This document shows, in pieces, positions 5,944 through 6,240 of a stretch of 10,583 nucleotides of DNA. Made by a program: the position numbers and the translations under genes. Numbering within the stretch: the stretch's first letter is position 1; the number at the start of each line of letters is the position of its first letter. The notes beneath the pieces are model-generated. The model saw only the letters and a list, made by a program, of their open reading frames with translations. It searched no databases and was not told the origin of the DNA. Source of the stretch: Promethearchaeota archaeon (GTDB lineage Archaea; Asgardarchaeota; Lokiarchaeia; Sigyniarchaeales; SOKP01); assembly GCA_013375475.1 (NCBI GenBank), contig JABXKD010000057.1, forward strand, positions 14,132 to 24,714, written 5' to 3'.

Positions 5944-6240
5944 TATTGTTGCCTGCGCACCAACTCAAATTTATCACTTAATGGTAATACCATAAATCAA
6001 ATAAGTTCTCTCGTGCTAGGCGGTAATTTCTATGCCTTTTTGGGGCATAATCATGTCTGCATGCTGGGTCTGACTCCAATCTCATCGCACGGTAAAACCG
6101 TTAATTGCTAGATTAAGAGCCCATTTTTGATGCAGTAAATTGTTGATTAATAAATTCAGGATGTTTGCATAACTTTGCGCGCGTAATCACGATTATCATA
6201 CGCGTCCTCGAATATGCTAATGCTCCATCATCATTTTCCC
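5944..6240 (-). ncRNA. Three-hairpin H/ACA pseudouridylation guide RNA (or cluster of guide RNAs)
   Basis: No ORF, visibly GC-richer than flanks. Hairpin A: lower stem GCAUA/UAUGC (6217-6213/6171-6167), K-loop AUGA…GUGAUUA, ACA 6164-6162. Hairpin B: CUGCAU/AUGCAG (6135-6130/6062-6057), variant K-turn, ACA 6056-6054. Hairpin C: GCCU-A-GCAC/GUGC-GC-AGGC (6021-6013/5960-5951), K-turn UUGA/GUGAUAA, ACA 5949-5947. Confidence 0.8.

Follow-up and report, generated by a model that had tools for sequence, protein, structure and literature searches.

The stretch of DNA analysed here, referred to below as the window, comprises 10,583 nucleotides (nt) of a Promethearchaeota archaeon (GenBank assembly GCA_013375475.1, contig JABXKD010000057.1, positions 14,132 to 24,714 of the forward strand), and all positions are counted from its first letter. 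On its minus strand, from about 6240 to 5936, it carries a box H/ACA RNA of roughly 300 nt with three guide hairpins, the first of which, hairpin A (6217-6162), is predicted to guide the conversion of a 23S rRNA uridine in the peptidyl-transferase region to pseudouridine. Hairpin A opens with a lower stem whose 5' strand GCAUA (6213-6217) pairs with UAUGC (6167-6171); three of its pairs are invariant, two change on both sides, and 97.1% of the alignment cells are paired. The 5' guide strand U-UCGAGG (6206-6212, with UCGAGG at 6211-6206) leads into the upper stem (H2), made up of the pocket-closing A36 and CGCGUA on the 5' side (6199-6205) and of UACGCG and a C on the 3' side (6179-6185). Both sides of this stem change in 4/7 pairs within the genus and in 6/7 within the family. 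It is capped by a kink-loop (K-loop; U GA UAAUCGU GA U, 6186-6198), the presumed L7Ae site, in which G44, A45, U52, G53 and A54 are invariant. The 3' guide strand GCAAAGU (6172-6178, with GCAAAG at 6178-6173), the 3' strand of the lower stem, two unpaired A residues and an ACA box (6164-6162) complete the hairpin.

Hairpin A is a genuine guide hairpin of the archaeal H/ACA type, and its geometry fits the rules published for productive guides with regard to the 10-layer GA stem, the K-loop and the spacing of the ANA box. Productive archaeal motifs are described as having an H2 stem of 5-6 base pairs (bp), a 10-layer GA stem and an ANA box 14-15 nt from the closing pair, with the 3' guide duplex weighing more than the 5' duplex (Muller et al. 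2008, PMC2377435; Toffano-Nioche et al. 2015, PMC4652768). The distance from ACA to the pocket-closing pair is 14 nt in hairpin A, counted to the G of GCAAAG, and ten layers stand above the pocket, seven of them formed by the closing pair and six Watson-Crick pairs and the remaining three by U.U, G.A and A.G.

A 271-nt stretch around the hairpin finds matches in 37/42 genomes of the genus, with E-values of 1.3e-19 or lower for 35 of these and identities of 71-99%, which is striking conservation for a spacer between two convergent genes. When 30 sequences from the genus were aligned, 97.2% of the cells at paired positions proved to be paired, 7/19 pairs changed on both sides and none of 500 shuffled alignments reached the observed covariation score; in slid controls, pairing dropped to 24-44%. 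A wider alignment of 32 matches across the family has both-side changes in 16/19 pairs with 95.0% of the cells paired, figures that lean towards the structure as this alignment was fitted to the covariance model. The guide strands are equally well preserved: CGAGG is invariant in 30/30 sequences of the genus and in 31/32 at the family level, and GCAA is invariant in 30/30 sequences of the genus. At the family level (n=32), GCA is followed by A in 26 sequences and by U in 6, the next letter being A, or G in 5/32. The ACA box is likewise invariant in the genus; at the family level it reads AUA in 2/32 sequences, and ACA or AUA in 32/32. A covariance model of hairpin A and the kink-turn (K-turn) at its base found 94 of the 121 genomes of the order, nearly always with one match per genome. 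The matches fell in 91/101 genomes of the same family and in 2/14, 0/1 and 0/4 genomes of the others. Five further genomes of a second family yielded no credible match to the model (best E = 0.57) and none to a rigid pocket and K-loop pattern, from which neither absence nor presence follows. Conservation in the genus, covariation and conservation at the level of the order establish hairpin A as a functional RNA.

The RNA is also expressed. Six metatranscriptome runs from four studies contain at least about half of the sampled words of the stretch (0.48-0.64), and contigs assembled from four metatranscriptomes, one from each of four studies, cover 5939-6227 alone, at depths of up to 108, a single RNA contig of 292 nt spanning 5939-6226. 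The flanking genes are without contig cover, which is not in itself evidence of absence, except for a low-depth piece (X20; 5583-5614, depth 1.95) that continues into unlike sequence at both ends. Such contigs give neither the strand nor the exact ends of an RNA. Adapter-joined RNA fragments were found to end at 6208 (one run) and at 6007 (two runs, each from a different study), positions that fall within the 5' guide strand of hairpin A and of hairpin C, respectively, both of which are predicted to be single-stranded. An RNA that is conserved across a Promethearchaeial family and assembles from four small metatranscriptomes offers a practical entry to the guide RNAs of Asgard archaea.

Complementarity to the pocket was found in the 23S rRNA of related archaea. 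Fourteen archaeal 23S sequences (three from the genus, six from the same family and five from other families of the order) all read GGCUUGCUUCCUCGAUGUCGG, that is, GGCUUGC-U-U-CCUCGA, and the first eight of these loci (three from the genus and five from other families) all read GGCUUGC-U-U-CCUCGAUGUCGG. The 5' guide strand UCGAGG pairs with CCUCGA at 6/6 positions, and GCAAAG pairs through GCAA:UUGC alone, after which A.C and G.G follow, such that a bipartite Watson-Crick match of 6+4 bp leaves U-U unpaired between the two duplexes in 14/14 relatives. A gapless alignment with E. coli (Escherichia coli) rrlB places the first of these two uridines on E. coli column 2496 (C2496). The site tops the list of a target scan through the 23S and 16S rRNAs of three genomes of the genus, with 10 Watson-Crick bp vs 8.5 for the runner-up. 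The invariant letters of the pocket are exactly those that pair with this target, (U)CGAGG and GCAA, and the flanking pocket letters vary; where the fifth letter of the 3' guide is G (5/32), the C of CUUGC would be paired as well. We note that ACAUC (6164-6160, minus strand), made up of ACA and the first two letters of the K-turn stem that follows it, complements by eye the GAUGU directly 3' of CCUCGA in the 23S rRNA, a complementarity that is probably a coincidence of ACA and stem.

An earlier note on this DNA, made from its letters alone, had read both pocket strands and their 14-nt distance from ACA, and every letter and coordinate it gave for them is correct. From these strands it had derived a target of the form (C)UUUGC-Psi-N-CCUCGA (Psi, pseudouridine), of which the uridine and the CCUCGA are present and the full 6+6 bp pairing is not. 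The archaeal 23S sequence on which it had relied, UUUGC-UA-CCUCGA, came close and was inexact, given that 14/14 relatives read CUUGC-UU-CCUCGA. It had further proposed that the cognate 23S rRNA be examined, and held that the lack of a U at the target position would speak against its proposal. The sole large-subunit (LSU) rRNA in the assembly lies on another contig (C263:4025-6910) and reads GGUUUGGCACCUCGA, with a C at the proposed target position; it scores 2706.8 bits with the bacterial model vs 1829.2 bits with the archaeal one, and is the product of a bacterial contaminant contig. As such it was rejected as the cognate target, and the C does not refute the proposal because the rRNA that carries it is a contaminant. 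In 14/14 archaeal relatives the U is present and its flanks pair over 6+4 bp. Automated checks should take caution here, since testing against the contaminant 23S of this assembly would wrongly refute the finding. Two peculiarities of the relatives' 23S genes may be mentioned: an insertion of 31 nt relative to E. coli just past the E. coli ~2520 column (L008, G016) and, in one relative, a 23S match (G087:C1:204497-204862) with an interruption of about 135 nt that lies upstream of the target region.

The host of the window is a Promethearchaeia (Asgard) archaeon, and the genes of the window are archaeal. They encode, on the plus strand, TFIIB/TFB (3815-4741), whose closest relatives are from Promethearchaeia or Promethearchaeota (Asgard archaea), and an archaeosine-TGT-like protein (154-2241), together with CbiMQO-type transporter genes. 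Of the H/ACA protein set, Cbf5 (DKCLD domain, 78 bits), Nop10 (55.6 bits) and L7Ae (two L7Ae-family genes, 82.2 and 48.6 bits) are matched elsewhere in the genome, and Gar1 only by a sub-threshold match in the window itself, a small Gar1-like open reading frame (ORF) at 3488-3736 on the plus strand that scores 25.2 bits vs a cut-off of 29.3, all five Gar1 NCBIfam models being below their cut-offs. These genes bear on the idea that hairpin A is a chance fold of an intergenic spacer, or that it sits on a bacterial contig whose owner could not use H/ACA guides. Single-sequence folding would accommodate this idea, as the hairpin folds no better than shuffles (z = 0.21, with 111/200 shuffles folding equally well or better) and the minimum-energy fold differs from hairpin A, a result that is in itself neutral; so would the composition of the assembly, with its 288 contigs, contamination of 6.41% and only LSU rRNA of bacterial type with C at the site. 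The idea is nonetheless refuted by the TFIIB, Gar1-like and archaeosine-TGT-like genes of the window, by the presence of the RNA in 94/121 genomes of the order with covariation in 16/19 pairs, and by RNA contigs that cover the hairpin RNA and not its neighbours.

Taken together, the pocket, its conservation and the 23S sequences of relatives suggest that hairpin A guides pseudouridylation of the uridine at the E. coli 2496 column, a reading to which we would give a probability of about 0.7. By analogy with the archaeal H/ACA literature, L7Ae would bind the apical K-loop, and the pocket strands would pair with domain V of the 23S rRNA, UCGAGG with CCUCGA and GCAA with UUGC. The U-U between the duplexes would be left unpaired, and its first U would enter the active site of Cbf5 and be converted to pseudouridine. 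The converted uridine would be that of E. coli column 2496, P. abyssi (Pyrococcus abyssi) 2588 and yeast 2865. A box C/D-type K-turn closes the base of the hairpin just 3' of ACA. Protein binding, catalysis and the pseudouridine itself are what we infer from this analogy.

Several observations weigh against this assignment. No archaeal 23S rRNA is assembled for the host genome, and the target is accordingly taken from relatives. The pocket-closing pair, which among 28 distinct rows of the alignment is A-U in 18 and G-U in 1, is A.C in this window. The lower stem counts 5-6 bp vs 7-9 in canonical motifs and is followed by two unpaired nt before ACA; lower stems of 5-6 bp are described for Pyrobaculum sR201 and sR202 (PMC4652768). 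A helix comes after ACA, which is thus not terminal and has no 3' end next to it. Rfam gave no match for the window at gathering scores and, at E <= 10, four matches between 5800 and 6400, none of them to an H/ACA family and the best with E = 1.1. RNA contigs of two runs end at 6226/6227, inside the basal K-turn, so that the mature 5' end may lie either at 6240 or near 6227. The 3' duplex is short, with 4 bp, and falls to 3 bp in the 6/32 family members that carry GCAU, the 23S being unchanged in the four of these six that could be checked; Muller et al. describe the 3' duplex as the more important of the two and a 4-bp duplex with two G.U pairs as inactive (PMC2377435). Finally, the specificity of the match depends on how the pocket is defined. 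Under a strict geometry, in which the strands abut the closing pair, U-N is left unpaired and Watson-Crick pairs alone are counted, 56 of 20000 shuffled pockets reach 10 bp, but this geometry was chosen after the structure was known. A looser definition, which permits G.U pairs and three offsets for each strand, lets 277 of 2000 shuffled pockets do as well, and the match taken alone is therefore weak.

The last two points, the short 3' duplex and the ease of chance matches under the loose geometry, would also be expected if hairpin A were a true H/ACA guide whose physiological target is one or more other uridines, such as the U next to it (E. coli 2497 column) or a uridine elsewhere in rRNA, in a tRNA or in another small RNA. 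Position 62 is an A in one relative, where AGCAA:UUGCU is possible and the second U would then be the target. Many predicted archaeal targets are reported to fail, and one hairpin is described as serving up to 8 sites (PMC2377435, PMC11077068). The target scan, moreover, covered 16S and 23S alone. We nonetheless consider a different target unlikely, if a serious contender: the strict geometry leaves no other 16S/23S site even at 4+3 bp, the invariant letters of the pocket match the pairing with the 2496-column site exactly, the fifth letter of the 3' guide, where it changes, becomes the G that extends the pairing to CUUGC, and the same site is guided in Pyrococcus.

The Pyrococcus precedent is well documented. 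Psi2588 of P. abyssi was CMCT-positive and was formed in vitro, with a score of '+++', by motif 1 of Pab40, whose counterpart is motif 1 of Pf7; motif 1 of Afu4 was proposed for the same site (PMC2377435). The same study describes P. abyssi positions 2549, 2588 and 2603 as conserved in eukaryal LSU rRNA, and another guide, Pab35, as serving three positions that are modified in E. coli by RluE, RluB and RluC (PMC2377435). Yeast 2826, 2865 and 2880 are spaced in the same way as the three conserved P. abyssi positions, at distances of 39 and 15 nt. If the RluE, RluB and RluC positions are 2457, 2605 and 2580, as we take them to be, then P. abyssi numbering would be that of E. coli plus 92, and 2588 would fall on 2496. 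On the strength of this spacing, the E. coli 2496 column would correspond to both P. abyssi Psi2588 and yeast Psi2865. Yeast 25S Psi2865 is listed as a peptidyl-transferase centre site guided by snR46 (PMC8307265), and phenotypes of the snr46-delta mutant have been described (PMC1766470). The equation of the target uridine with E. coli 2496 and yeast Psi2865 that the earlier note had made is thus borne out by the gapless rrlB alignment and by the spacing shared with P. abyssi. Its view of the hairpin as an archaeal guide for a conserved eukaryotic site holds insofar as the best rRNA site fits, and overstated the novelty, as knowledge of an archaeal guide for this uridine goes back to the work on Afu4, Pf7 and Pab40. 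The likeness to snR46 that it suggested extends to the target, the same rRNA column in the peptidyl-transferase region as judged by spacing, and not to the architecture: hairpin A has a K-loop, a single ACA and a place in a multi-hairpin RNA of archaeal type, unlike the eukaryotic hairpin-hinge-hairpin-tail arrangement with an H box and no K-loop, which is described in general terms in PMC11077068.

Hairpin A resembles motif 1 of Pab40, Pf7 and Afu4 (Rfam HgcG, RF00064), judging from published descriptions rather than from a direct alignment with Pyrococcus sequences, in being an H/ACA hairpin with a K-loop or K-turn that stands first of three in its RNA, and in its predicted target, the 23S uridine P. 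abyssi 2588, which has been mapped and its modification reconstituted in P. abyssi. The P. abyssi motif, Pa40.1-L2588, is assigned to the fold class '10/5/9', with a 10-layer GA stem, 14 nt to ANA and a short 3' guide of 5 nt (PMC4652768). Hairpin A shares the 10-layer GA stem and the 14-nt distance of this class. It differs from the three RNAs in having a lower stem of 5-6 bp where theirs have 8-9, in the closing helix and box C/D-type K-turn that follow ACA, and in its Asgard host, theirs being Thermococcales and Archaeoglobus. A search of the whole genome with RF00064 found nothing at the locus even at E <= 10, the best score elsewhere being at most 11.5 bits, and homology is not shown by this search. 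No description of Asgard H/ACA guide RNAs was found in the literature, supplementary files not being covered. The RNA is an Asgard representative of a type of guide RNA known before, distinguished by a variant structure at its base.

That variant structure is a box C/D-type K-turn enclosing hairpin A, in which tandem G.A pairs are accompanied by an N.U pair and whose 3-bp stem II starts right after ACA. Its 5' half (6224-6236, minus strand) consists of the C-helix strand AAAU, a bulge GAU, GA, U and the stem II strand GGA, with A10, G12, A13, G15, G16 and A17 invariant, and pairs with a 3' half (6152-6161, minus strand) made up of the stem II strand UCC, U and GA, which together yield a D-box-like 'CUGA', and the C-helix strand AUUU. 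A C box AUGAUGG and a D box CUGA thus form a K-turn with a terminal helix. In the family alignment, both sides change in 4/4 pairs of the outer C-helix and in 2/3 pairs of stem II. The alignments reveal neither a C' nor a D' box, nor a methylation guide of about 9 or more nt upstream of box D or D'; the letters upstream of CUGA are ACA and stem II, and a methylation guide adjacent to the D box was rejected as a candidate for this reason. Likewise rejected was the possibility, raised by the contigs that stop at 6226/6227, that the apparent C box is mere promoter sequence: the helix that contains it covaries across the family, which speaks for the letters of the K-turn being part of the RNA despite these stops. 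The basal K-turn is probably a second L7Ae site that stabilises or delimits the hairpin A unit, and is a structural oddity open to testing. Composite C/D-H/ACA RNAs are known from eukaryotes as small Cajal body RNAs (scaRNAs), of which U85 is an example. In archaea, the H/ACA motif of P. abyssi Pab21 is situated at the 5' end of a transcript that carries the complete C/D guide snoR9 beside it, in tandem (PMC2377435; PMC4652768). The Asgard RNA resembles both Pab21-snoR9 and U85-type scaRNAs in combining an H/ACA hairpin and a box C/D motif on one transcript, and is unlike Pab21 in that its C and D boxes flank hairpin A with no methylation guide, C' or D' box evident.

The presence of two K-turn-type sites in one unit, and of an ACA inside an internal loop closed by a helix, would also suit an H/ACA-shaped RNA that does not guide at all and acts instead as a chaperone of rRNA folding or processing, by base pairing at the peptidyl-transferase region, or else as a regulatory RNA that binds L7Ae. 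The complementarity by eye of ACAUC to the GAUGU just 3' of CCUCGA could be read in the same sense. We hold such a role to be quite improbable, as all the geometric rules of a productive guide are respected in hairpin A, the unpaired dinucleotide begins with U in 14/14 23S sequences, and genes for all the H/ACA proteins are present, albeit with a sub-threshold match for Gar1.

Downstream of hairpin A, the RNA contains two further hairpins. Hairpin B (6054-6149, minus strand) comprises an outer helix UAAUC/GAUUA, a lower stem CUGCAU/AUGCAG and an ANA box at 6056-6054 that varies between ACA, AUA and AAA. Over its 24 pairs 92.1% of the cells are paired, 4/6 pairs of the lower stem change on both sides and none of 500 shuffles attains the covariation score. 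A non-standard K-turn lies about 11 bp above its pocket. The conserved 3' guide of hairpin B, ACCC(AGC), complements (GCU)GGGU of the 23S rRNA at E. coli 2578-2584, beside U2585/U2586; its 5' guide has no evident partner. Hairpin C (5939-6035, minus strand) is built of an outer helix GCAUA/UAUGC, a lower stem GCCUA/(U)AGGC, an upper stem, a K-turn with an apical stem and an ACA box at 5949-5947; 90.5% of the cells of its 20 pairs are paired and six pairs change on both sides. The upper stem is of uncertain register. The GUU(A/G) and GAGAG of hairpin C complement UAAC...CUCUC of helix 69 near the E. coli 1915 column, over 4+5 bp and with extra unpaired letters. The outer helices of both hairpins are, as in hairpin A, closing helices that come after the ANA box.

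In their order, the targets predicted for hairpin B (E. coli 2585/2586 region) and hairpin C (helix 69) would match those of Pf7 stems II and III, and the targets of the whole series A-B-C those of Pf7 stems I-II-III. Hairpins HP1 and HP2 of Haloferax volcanii sR-h45 have been described as homologues of Pf7 stems II and III that guide helix 69 and E. coli 2586-column sites, and haloarchaea as being without a homologue of stem I and without its pseudouridine (PMC2584109). Hairpins B and C appear to guide the same sites as sR-h45; unlike haloarchaea, the Asgard RNA has, in hairpin A, a hairpin of the stem I type. Since the predicted targets and their order are those of the Pf7 stems, the RNA is probably a guide of the Pf7/Afu4 type, homology being unsupported by RF00064.

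A more far-reaching proposal is that this RNA represents the first described Asgard H/ACA family; that a Pf7/Afu4-type guide set, directed at the E. coli 2496 column, at the 2585/2586 region and at helix 69, already existed before Euryarchaeota, Asgard archaea and eukaryotes diverged, with snR46-like guides descending from it; and that the nesting of hairpin A in a C/D K-turn is an archaeal precedent of scaRNA topology. We put this forward tentatively and think it rather doubtful as a whole. Were the pseudouridine to be confirmed, guided modification of this peptidyl-transferase-region uridine would be on record for Euryarchaeota, Asgard archaea and eukaryotes alike, which would favour an early origin of both site and guide.

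The RNA is preceded by an A/T block AAUAAAUUUUUUAAC (6261-6275, minus strand) that is conserved across the genus alignment and is a candidate archaeal promoter; the first conserved G of the RNA (6240) follows 21-35 nt downstream of it. Among the neighbouring genes, an ORF at 5424-5894 (plus strand) with weak Roadblock/MglB-like matches (MAPKK1_Int, E = 9e-4; MglB, E = 1.2e-3) is convergent on the RNA gene, and a TrmY-like gene at 9142-9741 (plus strand) would encode a tRNA pseudouridine-54 N1-methyltransferase. The Gar1-like ORF stands directly upstream of the TFB gene, 2.4 kb from the H/ACA RNA.

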